DNA of 9,228 bases, from the IMG/VR virus record IMGVR_UViG_2526164665_000028. The stretch is one strand, 5' to 3'. This document shows, one piece after another, positions 1 to 9,228 of the stretch. Both the position numbers and the translations under genes were made by a program. The stretch comes from a virus. Its lineage: Duplodnaviria > Heunggongvirae > Uroviricota > Caudoviricetes. The notes beneath the pieces are model-generated. The model was not told the origin of the DNA and searched no databases. It worked only from the letters and a program-made list of their open reading frames with translations. Positions within the stretch are counted from its first letter, which is position 1. Each line of letters begins with the position of its first letter.

Positions 1-241
1 AGTGGCCGTAGGCCGGAAAAACTGGATGTTCGCGGGTTCCGACAGCGGTGGTGAACATGCGGCGGTGTTGTACTCGCTGATCGGCACATGCCGTCTGAAC
101 AATGTGGAGCCAGAAAAGTGGCTGCGTTACGTCATTGAACATATCCAGGACTGGCCGGCAAACCGGGTACGCGATCTGTTGCCCTGGAAAGTTGATCTGA
201 GCTCTCAGTAAATATCAATACGGTTCTGACGAGTCGCTTAC
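1..241 (+). mobile_element. IS66-family insertion sequence, right end (partial; continues left of window)
   Basis: Transposase C-terminus in frame 2 followed by a terminal sequence ending ...GAGTCGCTTAC at 231-241, the reverse complement of the GTAAGCG motif typical of IS66-family inverted-repeat termini. Confidence 0.7.
2..211 (+). CDS. IS66-family transposase (TnpC) C-terminal fragment, 5'-truncated by window edge
   Basis: Translation ...RKNWMFAGSDSGGEHAAVLYSLIGTCRLNNVEPEKWLRYV...LLPWKV matches the conserved C-terminal region of IS66 TnpC. Stop TAA at 209-211. Confidence 0.8.
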   Translation: MAVGRKNWMFAGSDSGGEHAAVLYSLIGTCRLNNVEPEKWLRYVIEHIQDWPANRVRDLLPWKVDLSSQ

Positions 242-520: not shown

Positions 521-793
521 TCAGACAGGAATTTGCTGACGGTTTGACAGCTTTGACGCGGAGCCATAGCGATTGAGAGTTTGCTGTTGTTTTTCCGGTA
601 TTTTTGCTTTGTCTGATTCCTGTTCATTGCACCGAGGCTTCATAATTATCGTATCCACGCTTTCCAGTGCGGTAAATGTGCAGGAACATTCCAGATTCTG
701 GCACTGATACCATGAGCGTTTAACCGACGGAGCTTCATAGGCGCTGGTTCTGGCGTGAGCGACCGCGCCACATTCAGGACACTTCAGGGCCAT
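521..793 (-). CDS. delta: Ogr/Delta-family zinc-finger late transcription activator (single-domain)
   Basis: ATG at 793 (the longer ORF to 895 overlaps psu). Product MALKCPECGAVAHARTS...YQCQNLECSCTF has the C-x2-C-x22-C-x4-C Ogr/Delta zinc-finger spacing and the AHARTS motif. Start lies 1 nt after the psu stop. Confidence 0.8.
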   Translation of the reverse strand: MALKCPECGAVAHARTSAYEAPSVKRSWYQCQNLECSCTFTALESVDTIIMKPRCNEQESDKAKIPEKQQQTLNRYGSASKLSNRQQIPV

Positions 794-794
794 A

Positions 795-1349
795 TCAGCA
801 CACTCCTTTTTCATTAAGTCGGTTAAGGCGGGCCAGGAAAACTTTATGTTGTGCCGGGGTGAAACTGGCTGAAGCATCAGCGCGCATTGATGCATCCACC
901 GTTAATCCGGTTTCGTCGATAATGCTCTTATATGCTGCTGAAATTACCGGAGTACGCATTTCCGTTTGTCGGGCTACAGCGGTTCGTAATATTTTCATTG
1001 CCGCCTCAAGCCCGTATGGAGCGCAAAGAAAAGGAGCCAGAGCGTCAGTGAGTGCATCACCATGCTCGCTCATGAAGTTTTCCGTTGCGCTTGTAACACA
1101 ACTCTCCAGCACAATCTGATGAGCATAAAGACCATCCCGTGCAGCACAGTTAATCTGCCATTCGAGGACTGCAAGACGCTCACGAAGATCCTCAAGCTGG
1201 CTGGCATATGCTGCCGGTTTTTCTTCAGTATCCAGCAGAGCCGCCAGACGAAGCTGGTAGGTACTTTGCGTATTACGTAGTGTCAGCCAGCTTTTTATCG
1301 CCGAGCGGTAATCGTTGAGTGCTTCCTGAGTAATGGTTCCGGCATTCAT
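795..1349 (-). CDS. psu: Polarity suppression protein Psu (capsid decoration / Rho antagonist)
   Basis: 184-aa product with blocks resembling P4 Psu as I recall it (...ALTDALAPFL..., ...SFTPAQHKVF...). ATG at 1347-1349 overlaps the sid stop (ATGA). Confidence 0.8.
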   Translation of the reverse strand: MNAGTITQEALNDYRSAIKSWLTLRNTQSTYQLRLAALLDTEEKPAAYASQLEDLRERLAVLEWQINCAARDGLYAHQIVLESCVTSATENFMSEHGDALTDALAPFLCAPYGLEAAMKILRTAVARQTEMRTPVISAAYKSIIDETGLTVDASMRADASASFTPAQHKVFLARLNRLNEKGVC

Positions 1350-2098
1350 TTCTTCTCGCCCCCTTTAACCATGTCACGCTGTTTAAGCATCCGTGAACGC
1401 GCTGCAGGGCTGGGGGATTGTCTGGCATCCTGGATGGCTTTATCGTCCGCATAAATGCTGATCCCCGGCAGGGTAATATCATCGGTTGAAGATACGTTAC
1501 AGGACAGTGCCGGAGTGGTGAGTTGCTCGCTGATAAATTGCTTCAGCACACTTTCGGGGTCGTTTACGGTATGAACTACACCGATAACAGCAGAAGCGCT
1601 TCGGCCCAGAGTCATTTTCAGCAGTCCAAGGATCTGAATAAGTTTCTGACCGTGTTCCTTCATAAACTCATTCCAGAGCCACACTGCATGAGTTTCAATC
1701 AGGCGATTATGTTCGCTGATGTAGTGGTTTGCAGCATCCGCAGTTTTCCAGGGCAGGAATTCATTTTCTGCCGCCTGAGCTGCCAGCAAATCTTCGAACT
1801 CATCCAGTGTTTCGCGTCCGAGGGCGATTTCTGCCCGCAGTTTTTTCATGCGTGGCGTCATATTTCCCTGATTCTCACGAAACAGGTTTCGCCATTCATC
1901 ATTAAGCGCCTGCGTTTCCGTTTTTGTATCTTCCTGACGTTTACGGATAGTTTCAATCATTGCAGCAGCTTCAGTTTGTTTTCGTCGTTCTTCCTGCCAG
2001 ACAGCTTTTGCTGCCTTAACTTTATCCACCGCTTCGCGAATTTTCGGTGGGAGGGAGGGTGTAATGTTTGCATCAGGGATCTGGTTAACAGTAGTCAT
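1346..2098 (-). CDS. sid: Sid-like capsid size-determination (external scaffold) protein
   Basis: 250 aa from ATG at 2098, preceded by GGAG 6 nt upstream. The longer ORF to 2131 starts with TTG and has no SD. Size and position (first gene of the leftward late operon, upstream of psu) match P4 sid; coiled-coil-like composition. Confidence 0.75.
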   Translation of the reverse strand: MTTVNQIPDANITPSLPPKIREAVDKVKAAKAVWQEERRKQTEAAAMIETIRKRQEDTKTETQALNDEWRNLFRENQGNMTPRMKKLRAEIALGRETLDEFEDLLAAQAAENEFLPWKTADAANHYISEHNRLIETHAVWLWNEFMKEHGQKLIQILGLLKMTLGRSASAVIGVVHTVNDPESVLKQFISEQLTTPALSCNVSSTDDITLPGISIYADDKAIQDARQSPSPAARSRMLKQRDMVKGGEKK

Positions 2099-2181
2099 GA
2101 CTGCTCCGGTAGTGTTTTGTTGTTGTGTCAATTGTGCCGGGGTCCATACAAGCGCACTACCGAGGAGGATTGTGTCAGTGA

Positions 2182-2470
2182 CTGAACAATGACCTTGTTC
2201 TGGCTAGCCAGAGAAAGGTGTCATGTCTGATCTACACGCTTCCTTTAATACATACTATTCACTACTGTTCACTTCAATAAAAATATAGTAAATACATGTG
2301 GTTAAGTGGTGTAGTGTTTTAATTAAAGTGATCATCTACTGTTCATGACTGTTCACAGAGATAAAATTAAACATATATTTCTTTTTCATATAAGTCGCGA
2401 TATTTATTTCAGTTTATTACTGGATCTTTTCTCCTCACCAATATTCACCAGTATTCACCAGTATTCAATA
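2182..2470. repeat. Iteron cluster (TGTTCAC / ATTCACC type), putative satellite ori-like region
   Basis: Repeated TGTTCAC-like motifs at 2182-2187 (rc), 2267-2273, 2340-2346, 2350-2356, plus tandem 10-bp repeats GTATTCACCA at 2441-2460 with degenerate flanking copies (2431-2470), in an ORF-free AT-rich region. Confidence 0.5.
2340..2357. promoter_or_regulatory. TGT-N12-ACA dyad (Ogr/Delta-type activator site candidate, or an iteron pair)
   Basis: TGTtcatgactgttcACA matches the TGT-N12-ACA dyad found upstream of P2/P4 late promoters; it is also made of two iteron-like half-sites, so the assignment is ambiguous. Confidence 0.3.
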
Positions 2471-3012
2471 CATATTCTATGTAAAGAATAAAAGATGTCT
2501 TATGTCTGTTTAATAATTAAACATTCAACCTCCCTGCACTCAGTTGCATTTCAGGAAAATATTCATAAAAATGAATTTGTCTGATGTTCATTAAACACAT
2601 CCGGATACATGCGGAAGTAAGATGGTAATTTAATTTCTTTAATCATCGGATTTATTGATACATATGGTGAGCTGTTTATTTTTGGCCGTTTTGGCTCTTT
2701 TATTAATCAGGTGTTGTCTTAGTGCTTATGATGTAACGCCCTGAATGATATGGGCTGGTTCAGATTTGAGCTGTGATCCTGCCTAGTGTAATAGACTTTT
2801 TTATTATTGATGCTCCTTATTATATTCCATAAAGGAATTGTTTGTTTTTGTTCGTTTCATACGGTTTTTAGCTGTTTTATTTTTTGAGAAATCAACATTT
2901 CACACAAAATAAATAAAGCATGCGCGAGCCGCTTATATAAACATAATAAGGAGCTACCTGAATCCGCATGGAATTGCCCGGACTGTTGTAAACATATTAG
3001 AGAGGTAGCCAG

Positions 3013-3273
3013 ATGAATAGTATTTCCGTTTCCACCCCGGCACCAGCTGCTCCGGTGCTCCCGGTTCCGGCTCAGCAGGAGCGCTTCATACGATTACCTG
3101 AAGTGATGCACCTTTGCGGGCTATCCCGTTCAACCATCTACGACCTTATCAGCCGCGATGCCTTCCCGCAGCAGATATCCCTGGGTGGAAAAAATGTGGC
3201 CTGGGTACAGTCGGAGGTCAGTGCATGGATGGCGGCGCGAATTGCTGCCCGCGAGCAAGGAGGCCATGCGTGA
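3013..3273 (+). CDS. alpA: AlpA/Vis-family phage transcriptional regulator (excisionase-like HTH)
   Basis: 86 aa; AGAGG 7 nt upstream of ATG. Product ...[49 protein letters not shown]... is the AlpA/Vis helix-turn-helix signature. Confidence 0.85.
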
Positions 3274-3338: not shown

Positions 3339-3367
3339 TTTCCCGCTGCCGCAAAATCGGCTGCCGG

Positions 3368-3395
3368 GCGTAGGAACCCGAGTTACTTATTGGCG
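3368..3395 (+). promoter_or_regulatory. seqA-like bipartite target for the CI-like antisense RNA
   Basis: Half-sites GTAGGAAC (3370-3377) and CTTATTGG (3386-3393), complementary to TTCCTAC (3545-3551) and CCAATAAG (3529-3536) on the same strand. Confidence 0.5.
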
Positions 3396-3400
3396 ACACC

Positions 3401-3423
3401 AGACGCGCCGTGCGTCTTTTTTT
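3401..3423 (+). terminator. Intrinsic terminator-like hairpin in the immunity leader
   Basis: AGACGC-GCCGT-GCGTCT perfect 6-bp stem followed by TTTTTT. Confidence 0.5.
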
Positions 3424-3487
3424 ACGTCGTTGCTCAGGCACACCCATTTTTCGGGCTGCGGTGCTTATACCTTAGCCCCTTTCAGAT

Positions 3488-3572
3488 AATGGTGGTCCGG
3501 GCGGGGCAGCCTTCGGGCTGGCCGGTTTCCAATAAGGCCGGTATTCCTACCCCCGTTCGGGTCACCACCCAT
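3488..3572 (+). ncRNA. CI / C4-type antisense immunity RNA (boundaries approximate)
   Basis: GGTGGT (3491-3496) pairs with ACCACC (3564-3569) as a terminal stem; internal UUCG-closed hairpin CAGCC-TTCG-GGCTG (3507-3520); exposed region 3526-3552 carries the two blocks complementary to the upstream and downstream targets. The only ORF here (3571-3813, alternative frame) is likely spurious. Confidence 0.5.
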
Positions 3573-3818: not shown

Positions 3819-4042
3819 TGAATCACGCCGCAATCTCTTATGACGATATTCTCCGCCTGAAGCATCTTCGTAACGTGGGAGAGTTTGTCACTGGAATGGC
3901 TGTTCTTCAGGATTGCTACGAAAAACCTGCCAGTGCTCAATGTGAACAACTGGTTTCCCTGATTTATCTGATGACAGAGCAGCTTGATGGCGTGGTACAG
4001 CGTTGCCAGGATGACCTCATGAACATGGAGGTGGTGCAATGA
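3818..4042 (+). CDS. Small hypothetical protein of the satellite left operon (epsilon/derepression-protein position)
   Basis: 74 aa from ATG 3818 with GGGAGG 7 nt upstream (the ORF call from 3779 lacks an RBS); stop overlaps the next start (ATGA at 4039-4042). Confidence 0.6.
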
Positions 4043-4362
4043 AATCACGCACTCTTTCCCTTTCACTTCGGGTAGCGTTGTATCGCCGCGCGGTAGCCTG
4101 CGCCTGGTTGAGTGCCTGCTATCAGCAAAACCGCCATCTGCAGCTCACTCTGGATGAAATTGAAACCGCTATTGCCCGTGAGCTTGAAGGATTTTATCTG
4201 CGACAGCACGGGCAAACAAAAGGCATGGAAATCGCCTGCGCCCTGCTTTCAGACCTGATGGAATACGGCCCTCTAATGTCCTGTCCCGCACTCTCCCAGC
4301 TCGGAATAGCCGTAATGGATGAGTTATGCGTCCGTCACATCAAAAAGCCGGTTTTACACTGA
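4039..4362 (+). CDS. Hypothetical protein of the satellite left operon (immediately upstream of primase)
   Basis: 107 aa; GGAGG at 4027-4031 upstream of ATG 4039; translationally coupled to the preceding ORF. Confidence 0.6.
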
Positions 4363-6721: not shown

Positions 6722-6746
6722 CCCGGCTGATGCCGGGCTTCTTATT
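6722..6746 (+). terminator. Intrinsic terminator after the primase gene
   Basis: CCCGGC-TGAT-GCCGGG hairpin followed by CTTCTTATT, 12 bp past the alpha stop. Confidence 0.55.
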
Positions 6747-6771
6747 GGAAACGCACAAATGTAGAGATAGC

Positions 6772-6979
6772 TGTTCACTCTTCACCTCGCTGTTAACACG
6801 TAAACAATTGATATATAAGTTAAAAATGGCAGGGTGAATAGTGTGCATGGTTTTGCGAAAAAAAAGTATTTTTTGTAGAGTCAAGTCCCGGTTTGGATCC
6901 GTTTAACGGAACCTAACTAGATTGACTATTTCTCTGATGATTTTTGGATAAATAATCAACAAAAATCAAAATGTGAACA
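6772..6979. repeat. Second iteron cluster (crr-like), downstream of primase
   Basis: TGTTCACT (6772-6779), TTCACC (6781-6786), TGTTAACA (6791-6798), GGTGAATA (6833-6840, rc TATTCACC), GTGAACA (6973-6979, rc TGTTCAC). Confidence 0.45.
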
Positions 6980-7060: not shown

Positions 7061-7082
7061 TGCGAGTCCGGCCTTCGCACCA
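7061..7082 (+). other. att core: 3'-terminal fragment of a tRNA-Leu (leuX-type) gene, probable attR / right boundary of the satellite
   Basis: TGCGAGTCCGGCCTTCGCACCA matches the T-loop/acceptor 3' end of E. coli tRNA-Leu(CAA) as I recall it (TTCGAGTCCGGCCTTCGGCACCA) with two differences. No 5' half is present, so this is a duplicated integration-site fragment, not a tRNA gene. Confidence 0.55.
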
Positions 7083-7615
7083 AGTTACTAAATTCCTTAC
7101 AATACAGTTAGTTAGACGATTAAATCTGTCTCTTTTGCCTGTAAGAAATGCTCTGTTATGTCCCTTGAAAAAGCCGCTGTGGTTGATAGTGGTAATTGGG
7201 ATGTTAACTCATAGCGGCGTGTCGTTCCAAGCGTCAAACACGTACTGACTCAACTTGAAAGCTATGACGTAGCCACCGTCTCTAAACAATCCCAAAACTT
7301 TTAGTGCAGCGCATTTTAGCCCGATGCCCCCATTCTGTCGCCGTCGCGAGACGCCGCAGGGGATAAACAGGTTTATGGTGGTCACGGTACTTGCAGACCA
7401 TATGCAAGCTCTGCCAGCGGTTCGGCCTCGCTCCCCTTGGGTACATGGTCATCCTGATAAGCCTCACTAACTGACATAACCCTGATGAAGTCGCAAGAGG
7501 CTCCGCTTGTTGTCTTACCACCAACGGGGCTTTATGGATTCTATTGCTTAATATATGATTGTATCAAACTTAGACTGCATAATTTAAACGAACATAACAA
7601 TCAGGCAGGGGAAGA

Positions 7616-8440
7616 ATGATAAAGCCATTTTCTGTGAGGTATGGTCATGTTGACGTTAGAGAGCATGTCCAGCTGAATGATCTTAATTCTGATACACGCA
7701 TGGCATTGTGGAATTGCTTATATCTTTTCCTTTGGACTAACAATCGTCAAACTGCTACAGCAACAAAATGTGCGCAGTCTGTGTGGATATATTATCTAAA
7801 TCAACCTGCGGATAATATTCCTCGTTATGAAAGTGGATACAAAAGTGATAAGACGTTGCTGACTGCTATCCGAGATTATATATATGGGGAAGCATGGTAT
7901 TTGGTATATGATTTAATTGAGTTCATCATTGAGAGAACTAATTCATATATTAATCTATCGAAGCATCTCAATTCCATCTTTAAAAAGCATGGCGTTGGTT
8001 ATACCATAATAAATGGTTGTATTACTCCTATTTCAAATGATAACGAAATTGAAAGTGTTCAGAACGCAGTTGATAATGGCACTGATTCATCGCGTAGCCA
8101 TTTCGAAAGGGCGTTACAACTAATGACGGATAGAGAGCAGCCAGACTACAGAAACTCGATTAAAGAGTCTATCTCTGCAATTGAATCTTTATGCAGGAAA
8201 ATCACGGGCAATGATAAAGGAACCTTGGGGGCTTGTCTTAAAGCTATAGAGGAAAAAGGATATATACACTCTGCAATGAAAGGCGCTTTTAGTCAGCTCT
8301 ATGGTTATACAAGTGATCAGGGTGGAATACGTCATGCGCTAACAGAAGAAGATGTAAATCCTACCTTAGCTGAAGCTAAATTTATGTTAGTCACTTGCAG
8401 TGCGTTCAGTAATTATCTGTTGTCAAAAATAAGTGATTAA
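7616..8440 (+). CDS. Hypothetical protein, tentatively AbiJ-like abortive-infection protein (HEPN/Abi_C-like C-terminal region)
   Basis: 274 aa; GGGGAAG upstream of ATG 7616; stop TAA at 8438-8440. Strongly AT-biased codons. N-terminus MIKPFSVRYGHV...ALWN and C-terminal ...YGYTSDQGGIRHALTEED... recall AbiJ-N/Abi_C proteins, but this is from memory of motif patterns only. Confidence 0.55.
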   Translation: MIKPFSVRYGHVDVREHVQLNDLNSDTRMALWNCLYLFLWTNNRQTATATKCAQSVWIYYLNQPADNIPRYESGYKSDKTLLTAIRDYIYGEAWYLVYDLIEFIIERTNSYINLSKHLNSIFKKHGVGYTIINGCITPISNDNEIESVQNAVDNGTDSSRSHFERALQLMTDREQPDYRNSIKESISAIESLCRKITGNDKGTLGACLKAIEEKGYIHSAMKGAFSQLYGYTSDQGGIRHALTEEDVNPTLAEAKFMLVTCSAFSNYLLSKISD

Positions 8441-8488: not shown

Positions 8489-8964
8489 TTATTCACCAGA
8501 CTCTAATCTTTTTTCTCTTTTCTCATCTCTCCTTTTTATTGCCAAATCGTGTTGCTCTTGCAGATACGTGCGTTCTTCGTTTCTATCGCTTGAAGTATAT
8601 ACGTCTGCTTTTACTTTTTTAGCTCCTTGTGCAATAGGTTTCCAATCCTCTCTTATACCTTTAATTTGTTCTGCAATTTGCGTCAATGGGCTTCTCGCTC
8701 CTAGATAACTTATTCCTTCAAATGTCGCCATGTCATACACATATTCATTTGTTTCTCTATCGTTTGATTTAGGTTTGCTTGCCCAGCTTATATTAATATT
8801 ATAAATTTGATCTTTGATTTGTTCATACTTACAGAGATTGCTGGTAAGTGATTGCCCATTTTTTAACACGCTTACCTTACTAAACGGAATCTCACTTTTT
8901 TCTCTATGCTCCGCATTTACTAGTGGAGGATCAAACACAACCTCAACATTATAGGCAGGTGAGG
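8489..8964 (-). pseudogene. Hypothetical protein, 5'-truncated by IS3-family insertion (remnant ORF; first ~44 codons of the 8489-9097 ORF are IS-derived)
   Basis: The ORF reads in frame across the IS terminus at 8965. Downstream of the junction the first in-frame ATG is far inside the ORF; only a GTG at 8936-8938 with a close GAGG is available. AT-rich composition like the neighbouring gene. Confidence 0.5.
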
Positions 8965-8975
8965 TGTACTGGCAA
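8948..8975 (-). promoter_or_regulatory. Hybrid outward promoter at the IS3 junction
   Basis: On the minus strand, TTGCCA (IS terminal repeat, 8970-8975), 16-bp spacer, TATAAT (flanking DNA, 8948-8953), reading into the truncated gene. Confidence 0.4.
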
Positions 8976-9228
8976 TAGCGGACACTACCATTTGTTCTTT
9001 TTTTAAGCAGCCATCTGATGATATTTTTCCCTGAAGGCTGCCGGGGAGATATTCCCCAGACGAGAGTGACGACGCTGACGATTGTAGAAAATCTCAATGT
9101 ATTCCCGTATTACTGAGATGGCTTCATCCCGGTTATTAAAACGATAGTGGCTCAGGCTCTCATTTTTCAGCGTTCCCCAGAAGCTTTCCATCGGAGCGTT
9201 GTCGTAACAGTTACCTTTACGCGACATT
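8965..9228 (-). mobile_element. IS3-family insertion sequence, terminal part (continues right of window)
   Basis: Terminus TGTACTGGCAATAGCGGACAC at 8965-8985 resembles IS3-family terminal inverted repeats (TG end, CAATAGxGGACAC block); the transposase C-terminus lies just inside it. Confidence 0.7.
9003..9228 (-). CDS. IS3-family transposase OrfB C-terminal fragment (integrase catalytic core end)
   Basis: ...GNCYDNAPMESFWGTLKNE...RDEAISVIREYIEIFYNRQRRHSRLGNISPAAFREKY is the conserved C-terminal region of IS3-family OrfB; stop TAA at 9003-9005; 5' end beyond the window. Confidence 0.8.
   Translation of the reverse strand, partial: MSRKGNCYDNAPMESFWGTLKNESLSHYRFNNRDEAISVIREYIEIFYNRQRRHSRLGNISPAAFREKYHQMAA

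Follow-up and report, generated by a model that had tools for sequence, protein, structure and literature searches.

The intergenic region between sid and alpA in a P4-like satellite prophage contains a module of six iteron positions which is probably the homologue of ori1 of P4, and therefore the candidate replication origin of the satellite. The module is located at positions 2253-2357 of the 9,228-nucleotide stretch of DNA analysed here, hereafter called the window. The assignment to ori1 is based on synteny with P4, on positional homology with the P4 repeats, and on the presence of all the partners in the same element. Such a feature is to be expected in a P4-like satellite and does not represent a new kind of element; the layout of its repeats is a lineage-specific variant.

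The satellite and its intergenic region

The window was identified as a P4-like satellite prophage located at leuX. Its intergenic segment 2132-3012 shows 100% identity to chromosomes of E. coli O26 (e.g. NZ_CP028116, where a tRNA-Leu and an integrase adjoin the element), and copies of IS66 and IS600 flank the element in the chromosome. In the window, the leuX attachment core is found near 7064-7083, after the crr-like unit described below.

The gene order (Table 1) is the same as in P4 (GenBank X51522), in which the annotated rep_origin (9086-9809) also lies between ORF88/vis and sid. On the 3' side of alpA there are an Ash/Icd-like gene, a small ORF and a DUF5375 gene, followed by the gene for a 777-aa primase-helicase. 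AlpA shares 64% identity with P4 ORF88/Vis and Sid only 21% with P4 Sid; among the P4-like satellite prophages, the element belongs to a different lineage from P4.

Table 1. Features of the window, with their positions, strands and, for iteron-like sites, PWM scores.
Feature	Position	Strand	PWM score	Basis or remarks
Ogr/Delta-like gene	521-793	-		Gene order
psu	795-1349	-		Gene order
sid	1346-2098	-		Gene order
Gap, 914 bp	2099-3012			Between sid and alpA
Psid proximal dyad, TGT-N12-ACA	2133-2150	-		Pattern match; centre 43.5 bp upstream of sid ATG 2098
Psid distal dyad, TGT-N12-ACA	2171-2188	-		Pattern match; overlaps left edge of 2182-2470
Palindrome ACCTTGTTCTGGCT/AGCCAGAGAAAGGT	2192-2219			Inverted repeat
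Iteron positions 1 and 2, TATTCACT and TGTTCACT, 10 bp apart	2256-2273	+		P4 9413-9406 and 9403-9396
TATTCACT	2256	+	11.6	Motif search
TGTTCACT	2266	+	13.8	Motif search
AT-rich spacer, GC 0.19	2274-2304			Aligns with AT-rich stretch inside the P4 module
Inverted iteron position	2305-2318	-		Aligns with P4 9353-9360
Iteron positions 4 to 6, TGATCATC, TGTTCATG and TGTTCACA	2329-2357	+	3.6 (at 2329)	P4 triple 9338-9310
TGTTCATG	2340	+	3.3	Motif search
TGTTCACA	2350	+	10.7	Motif search
Second AT-rich stretch, GC 0.23	2358-2431			The 40-bp windows poorest in GC within the intergenic region fall here
10-bp phased array, TCCTCACC, TATTCACC, TATTCACC, TATTCAAT	2432-2470	+	2.1, 12.6, 12.6, 5.5	Positional homologue of P4 type 2 repeats
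TATTCACC	2442 and 2452	+		Motif search
TATTCAAT	2462	+		Motif search
PLL-like core (putative promoter), homologue of P4 PLL core	2543-2570	+		Local alignment to P4 9122-9095
Segment of about 360 bp, missing in P4	2576-2934			Between PLL-like core and alpA leader
alpA/vis leader	2935-3012	+		P4 9106-9033, local alignment score 32
alpA	3013-3273	+		Gene order
DUF5375 gene, P4 ORF106 homologue	4039-4362	+		70% identity to P4 ORF106; Pfam DUF5375
alpha primase-helicase, 777 aa	4377-6710	+		73% identity to P4 alpha
Terminator-like hairpin after alpha	6722-6737			Terminator scan
Single crr-like unit	6760-6880	+		Aligned to P4 4435-4290

The most likely start of sid is the ATG at 2098, which is also the RefSeq start, so that the intergenic region spans 914 bp (2099-3012) and not about 880 bp, as given in the initial annotation. 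The same annotation had called this length unusual, and rightly so: the median is 583 bp in the 44 P4-like loci considered below, only five of which reach at least 900 bp, and the P4 region measures 552 bp vs 914 bp in the window. The region is also free of ORFs, as had been stated, in that 2099-3012 contains no ORF longer than 48 aa and RefSeq annotates nothing in the identical O26 sequence. The largest ORF in the gap (48 aa, 2345-2491) overlaps the iterons and was rejected as a gene; a 26-aa hydrophobic ORF (2664-2744) was rejected as well, as its frame differs between close relatives and it is missing in the diverged group. The AT-richness originally noticed was confirmed, with a GC content of 0.32 in 2182-2470 and 0.35 in 2099-3012, compared with 0.46 for the whole window.

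A blastn search in distant mode with 2100-3050 against 50,697 phage records gave no DNA match, and no Rfam match was found in 2050-3100. It should be noted that the homology of the region to P4 is seen only by short alignments anchored on motifs.

The six-position module and its P4 counterpart

Two sets of ori repeats are annotated in the P4 sequence X51522: the type 1 repeats, six in number, at 9310-9413, and the type 2 repeats, three units of 10 bp, at 9176-9205. The P4 segment 9420-9310 aligns position by position with 2253-2357 of the window, including the AT-rich spacer. In both elements the positions follow one another as a direct pair, the AT-rich spacer, an inverted position and a direct triple; the spacings (10, 11 and 10 bp) and the orientation relative to sid are the same, and the distance from the pair to the triple is 73 bp in the window vs 75 bp in P4. 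Positions 4-6 alone are spaced by 11 and 10 bp. The spacer at 2274-2304 is a candidate melting site, a role assigned to it by analogy.

The module differs from that of P4 in the sequence of its iterons. The annotated type 1 repeats of P4 read TGTTCACC, TGTTCACA, TATTCACC and TCTTCACC, whereas the sites of the window are, in order, TATTCACT, TGTTCACT, a lost position, TGATCATC, TGTTCATG and TGTTCACA; no perfect TGTTCACC is present in the region. The PWM used for scoring (Table 1) was derived from 37 canonical loci, with their six positions taken together, and its consensus is T, G (0.80) or A (0.17), T, T, C, A, C (0.94), C (0.65) or T (0.31). The canonical sites score from 5.7 to about 15, with a median of 14.8, and a random 8-mer reaches a score of 9 with a probability of about 5e-5. 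Sites of canonical quality occupy three of the six positions of the module (2256, 2266 and 2350), and within the triple only the last one. The inverted position is degenerate, reading GGTGTAGT where GGTGAACA is expected, with no site scoring 2 or more.

The likeness to type I iterons suggested in the initial annotation thus stands for the module, whose six positions align with the type 1 repeats of P4, but does not extend in the same way to the tandem GTATTCACCA array, which lies outside it. The proposal that the region is ori-like is supported by the synteny with the P4 origin, the positional alignment, and the presence of an alpha protein with an origin-binding domain.

The protein partners and the crr-like unit

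In P4, the alpha protein binds the iterons of ori and crr by its C-terminal domain and acts as both helicase and primase, and Cnr limits the copy number. The alpha protein of the window has the primase and SF3 helicase parts expected of such a protein, with the Pfam domains Zn ribbon, Toprim, D5_N and Pox_D5, and its residues 671-770 match the solved structure of the P4 origin-binding domain (PDB 1KA8) with E = 1.7e-48. Alpha, which ends in this winged-helix domain, presumably acts as the initiator at the iterons. In the DNA-binding domain there are five fixed lineage-specific differences (651, 667, 687, 699 and 705), all of them outside residues 706-760, which we take to be the recognition core; there is no sign of a shifted specificity of alpha. 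The homologue of P4 ORF106, which is presumably cnr, the copy-number regulator of the oriI replicon, is encoded on the 5' side of alpha.

The crr region of P4 (X51522, 4291-4590) directly follows alpha and contains ten type 1 repeats, arranged in two 120-bp units of five annotated repeats each. In the window, by comparison, there is one unit, homologous to one of these two, with three to four recognisable sites, among them TGTTCACT at 6772, TCTTCACC at 6779 and an inverted TATTCACC at 6833. In both elements, a unit has iteron variants in direct and in inverted orientation, with an A/T run after them, and TATTCACC, TGTTCACA and TCTTCACC are all annotated as type 1 repeats in the crr of P4.

If the analogy with P4 holds, the C-terminal winged-helix domain of alpha would bind the T[G/A]TTCAC sites at 2253-2357, and also the crr-like unit downstream of its own gene. 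The AT-rich DNA beside the iterons would be opened, alpha would provide the helicase and primase activities for the replication of the excised element, and the cnr homologue would limit its copy number. From the homology, synteny, conservation and protein partners established here we infer binding, melting and firing. The iteron origins of plasmids and of Gram-negative PICIs offer a parallel, in that helically phased direct repeats flank an AT-rich stretch and a primase or replicase gene is nearby, as is the case here. Unlike them, however, the putative origin of the window is bipartite, with ori and crr about 4.5 kb apart, its presumed initiator is not a Rep protein but a primase-helicase like alpha of P4, and its sequence is unrelated to theirs.

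Distribution of the module among P4-like satellites

A sample of 80 loci encoding alpha relatives was collected, with one genome per species, and the 44 loci with sid, alpA and alpha (the window and P4 counted among them) were analysed. In these, T[GA]TTCAC reaches a density of 9.2 per kb in the gap between sid and alpA, and of 8.0 per kb in the 450 bp that follow alpha; the remaining 547 kb have 0.44 per kb, about 20-fold less. Most of the 44 loci show the layout of two direct, one inverted and three direct iterons at fixed offsets, and this six-iteron ori1 layout is kept across satellites of Enterobacterales with alpha proteins down to 55% identity to that of the window.

The window shares its degenerate pattern, together with a gap of about 900 bp, with seven relatives, namely three from E. 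coli (L083, L084 and L085), one each from Enterobacter (L043) and Scandinavium (L066), and two viral contigs (L142 and L187). All eight elements have TGTTCAT at position 5 and no canonical inverted copy. They form two groups, with only about 63-65% identity between the groups across the gap.

Promoters and the right-hand segment

Divergent late promoters had also been expected in this stretch. Elements of both were indeed found in the ORF-free region, in the form of the Psid dyads and of a PLL-like core, but mostly outside 2182-2470. The two TGT-N12-ACA dyads upstream of sid, which we take to be Delta/Ogr sites of the kind present in P2/P4 late promoters, have the same 38-bp spacing and the same distance from sid as those of P4 (9493-9510 and 9531-9548, with the sid ATG at 9583). 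Because this geometry matches P4 exactly, it supports 2098 as the start of sid. The dyad of P2/P4 late promoters is centred near -55, and by analogy Psid would be located at about 2125-2190 on the minus strand, with its start near 2125. Both the TGT and the ACA of the proximal dyad are kept in 8 relatives.

The homologue of the P4 PLL core reads GTTGCATTTCAGGAAAATATTCATAAAA, against GTTGCGTCTGCTGAAAATATTCACAAAA in P4, and can be regarded as a PLL-like core and putative promoter. It was placed by local alignment, with a score of 16 that none of 500 shuffles reached; global alignment with the P4 intergenic region misplaces it. According to a pattern search, neither alpA nor the PLL-like core is preceded by a TGT-N12-ACA dyad. 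The leader of alpA contains a CATAAT box, a hairpin remnant, a Shine-Dalgarno sequence and the conserved block AACATAATAAGG. Since the PLL core and the leader of P4 align at 2543-2570 and 2935-3010, respectively, about 360 bp separate the PLL-like core from the leader in the window. This additional segment is poorly conserved, and has no Rfam match and no convincing ORF; the E. coli genomes with it have a single copy (242 places in 241 genomes).

The 10-bp phased array

The tandem 10-bp repeat described in the initial annotation was recovered by Tandem Repeats Finder at 2435-2467 (period 10, 3.3 copies, 95% matches). Only two units of the array reach scores of canonical iterons on the PWM. In the lineage, the four units read TCCTCACC, T(A/G)TTCAC(C/A), TATTCA(G/A/C)C and TATTCAA(C/T). 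The array has several traits in common with the type 2 repeats of P4: three to four 10-bp direct repeats, an offset of 79-106 bp from the iteron triple, and a place upstream of the PLL or PLL-like core; the unit sequences, in contrast, are unrelated (TATTCACC-type in the window and TTAAAGNCA in P4), those of the window resembling type 1 iterons. An alignment of multiple lineages showed that every satellite has a short array, phased by 10-11 bp, about 80-110 bp after the triple, and that lineages have different units in it even when they agree in their iterons. The array may therefore represent either extra sites for alpha or a sensor for a helper-phage protein, and which protein binds it is uncertain because it sits in the slot of the P4 type 2 repeats and Cox boxes.

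It is conceivable, though somewhat doubtful, that the array at 2432-2470, and only the array, is made of boxes for a Cox/Apl-type excisionase-regulator of a P2-like helper phage and not of alpha iterons, with the six-position module still acting as ori1. The bound array would then switch on the PLL-like promoter at 2543-2570, as P2 Cox does at PLL of P4, and the PLL-like core lies about 75-95 bp from the array, much as in P4. The cox-box consensus is TTAAA(G/C)NC(A/C), with a phasing of 10-11 bp, and a Cox site is located upstream of PLL in P4 (PMC3936717). Two exact matches to this consensus are present in the P4 type 2 repeats (9180-9188 and 9190-9198), which occupy the same offset after the triple as the array; none of the array units of the window matches it. 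The unit in the slot varies among satellites with near-identical iterons, and is of the TTGCCA/GCCAA type in 17 of 43. The two annotated Apl-binding regions of phage 186 read ATTGCCA, TTTGCCA and TTGGCAA. Phased TTGCCA pairs are concentrated in the array zones: across 38 loci, the 140-bp array zones have ten of them (spread over nine loci), vs one in the other 513 kb, and in the 186 locus they occur in the two Apl regions only. Because the units track the recognition sequences of Cox and Apl, the slot looks like a binding place for helper proteins of this type. In addition, units 3 and 4 of the arrays of the relatives (TATTCAGC, TATTCAAC and TATTCGAC) fall outside the variation of canonical iterons, 94% of which have C at position 7.

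Several observations point instead to alpha as the protein bound by the array. Units 2 and 3 are both TATTCACC, a type 1 repeat of P4 crr, with a PWM score of 12.6; one of the relatives (L084) has a perfect TGTTCACC in its array; and the array as a whole is similar to the first half of a crr unit, as well as to the P4 crr string TGTTCACC-CTTCACCC-TATTCACC-TATCAC. Moreover, no phased pairs or triples of T[AG]TTC[AG] were found in 14 sampled switch and attP regions of P2-like phages, although the positive controls of this test worked, both for P2 with P4 and for 186 with the satellites of the TTGCCA type. As these 14 regions, admittedly a small sample, lack phased TATTCA boxes, a sensor for a P2-like helper in the window is without its key support. 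A scan of viral contigs for three TATTCA at 10-11 bp gave at least 120 loci, mostly unrelated; among the matches listed only P4-like satellites stood out, and no P2-like helper was present. A search for loci related to the Cox/Apl alignment retrieved only near-identical P2-Cox phages, and no description of Apl-type boxes in satellites was found in the literature searched.

A more general interpretation, which we put forward only tentatively, is that the slot after the ori1 iterons is a swappable helper sensor, whose boxes match the excisionase-regulator of the helper lineage that is exploited. P4 would then carry P2 Cox boxes in the slot, about 40% of the sampled satellites TTGCCA boxes of the 186 Apl type, and others different units. 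In the lineage of the window, the TATTCA(C/G/A)C units may sense a helper protein, or the sensor may have been replaced by alpha-type iterons; in the latter case, late transcription would be coupled to the satellite's own initiator. The way in which the array varies with the Cox/Apl recognition sequences suggests that helper specificity could be read from the sequence of the satellite, which is testable.

Degeneracy of the module

For the module itself, it appears unlikely that the prophage is cryptic and that its P4-type origin has decayed to a non-functional relic. Decay could account for the three sub-canonical positions out of six and the loss of the inverted copy, for the presence of one crr unit only, and for the IS elements that flank the window; the hairpin of the alpA leader, conserved in the relatives and in P4, likewise carries two disrupting changes here. 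Tocchetti and co-workers reportedly found in 1999 that deletion of a single iteron, or a change in spacing, inactivates oriI of P4, and if P4 oriI is so intolerant of iteron loss, the module might be weak or dead. Nor does the core of the alpha DNA-binding domain have lineage-specific changes that would point to a specificity shifted towards the degenerate sites. The degenerate pattern, however, is common to eight elements from three genera which are about 35-38% different elsewhere in the gap. Of all parts of the intergenic region, the iteron pair is the most similar between the two groups (identity 0.95); the iteron triple reaches 0.80 and the 10-bp array 0.78, compared with 0.43-0.69 in the spacers, 0.46 in 2576-2880 and 0.73 in the alpA coding sequence. 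The strongest constraint thus falls on the iterons, which speaks for a variant maintained by selection and against random decay. Furthermore, intact ORFs are present for alpha, cnr, alpA, sid, psu and delta.

One lineage would thus tolerate three sub-canonical positions, which bears on the strict iteron requirement said to hold for P4. The layout variant marks a sub-lineage that is present in 241 of the 5,426 complete E. coli genomes.

Motif counts and minor features

Over the whole window, 13 copies of the motif T[GA]TTCAC were counted, vs 2.5 expected, and none of 200 shuffles reached 13. TGTTCAC-like motifs are indeed multiple in 2182-2470, as first reported, and all of them are on the plus strand. 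Counted against a shuffled background, T[GA]TTCAC occurs five times in 2182-2470, vs 0.18 expected, a number reached by none of 2000 dinucleotide-preserving shuffles built from 2182-2470 alone; in these motif statistics, tandem copies are non-independent events. Because the local shuffles fail to reach five, AT-richness does not explain the excess. An origin of the cluster by chance in AT-rich, repeat-prone intergenic DNA with no specific function, which might be argued from the GC content of 0.32 and from the fact that tandem duplication alone multiplies a motif, is effectively refuted by these shuffles, by the roughly 20-fold enrichment in the 44 loci, and by the conservation of the iterons, which is the highest in the region, and the positions are, besides, homologous to annotated repeats of P4.

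Locating the putative origin helps annotation, because RefSeq leaves the 914 bp blank, and would be useful for mobilising or replicating the element.

Close to the left edge of the region, the palindrome at 2192-2219 is lineage-restricted, with partial matches in P4 and in one further locus (L020). Its core, CTGGCTAGCCA, is invariant in the lineage, and an invariant block extends over 2200-2210 in 8 relatives.

Elements between sid and alpA

A palindrome upstream of Psid, a P4 late promoter (see table), is kept in all eight members of the lineage, i.e. the window and its seven relatives, which fall into two diverged groups. In P4 (GGCAAGCCAGG) and in L020, another P4-like satellite locus, it is present in part only, and it was not found in most of the other satellites compared. 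We regard the palindrome as a candidate protein-binding site.

Between the core promoter resembling PLL, the other P4 late promoter, and the alpA leader, about 360 bp of the window (2576-2934) have no counterpart in P4. The length of this segment is kept in the eight members of the lineage, while sequence identity between the two groups is only 46%. A P4-like ATATTCAYAAAA box borders it at each edge, one at 2559-2570 and a degenerate one at 2935-2946. The segment contains a small ORF encoding a hydrophobic peptide, whose counterparts in close relatives are also short and hydrophobic (21-23 aa) and start at the same conserved ATACATATG, but are shifted in frame; the ORF is absent from the diverged group of the lineage, and it is probably not a gene. 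As for the alpA leader, both P4 and the relatives keep its CCGGA-N8-TCCGG hairpin, which reads CCGCATGGAATTGCCCGG in the window (2961-2980), with just three base pairs left.

Coordinates of the features in the window and location of the boxes in other satellites
Feature	Position	Strand	Remarks
IS66-family (ISCro1) transposase	1-211	+	left edge
Delta homologue	521-793	-	90 aa, single Ogr-type zinc finger
Sid homologue	1346-2098	-	21% identity to P4 Sid
Palindrome	2192-2219		invariant core CTGGCTAGCCA; ~80 bp upstream of inferred Psid start
Small ORF	2664-2744	+	26 aa, hydrophobic, MVSCLFLAVLALLLIRCCLSAYDVTP
isrK Hfq-binding RNA	3345-3422	+	72 bits
C4 antisense RNA	3485-3572	+	83 bits
Flanking features past attachment core	7616-8440	+	
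	8489-9097	-	
	9003-9227	-	
GTTTGCCA x3	~80-115 bp past iteron triple		L004, L007, L016, L018, L052
GATTGCCAA	~80-115 bp past iteron triple		L005, L010, L019, L022, L024

Boxes beside the iterons in other satellites

Many P4-like satellites carry TTGCCA/GCCAA boxes, phased by 10-11 bp, at the position of the P4 Cox boxes. Phased TTGCCA pairs occurred 10 times in the array zones (140-bp stretches 3' of the iteron triple in 38 loci) and once in the remaining 513 kb of the satellite loci compared. In phage 186, both annotated Apl-binding regions contain sequences matched by these boxes.

RNAs, Delta, Sid and ends of the satellite

Two RNA families, isrK and C4, exceed their Rfam gathering scores, each within an ORF annotated as Icd/Ash-like on the 3' side of alpA. 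C4 is taken here as the family to which the CI immunity RNA of P4 belongs. The Sid homologue scores above the threshold for the Pfam Psu family. While P4 Delta (166 aa) has two Ogr-type domains, its homologue in the window has one; the end of the ISCro1 transposase immediately precedes this delta-like gene, separating it from the cargo region of the satellite.

At the other end, a single unit resembling crr, the cis replication region after alpha, is present (6760-6880), compared with two 120-bp repeats in P4. The attachment core GAGTCCGGCCTTCGCACCA at approximately 7064-7083 marks the right end of the satellite. Past this core come a gene with an AbiJ-NTD4 domain, a truncated hypothetical gene and a copy of IS600.
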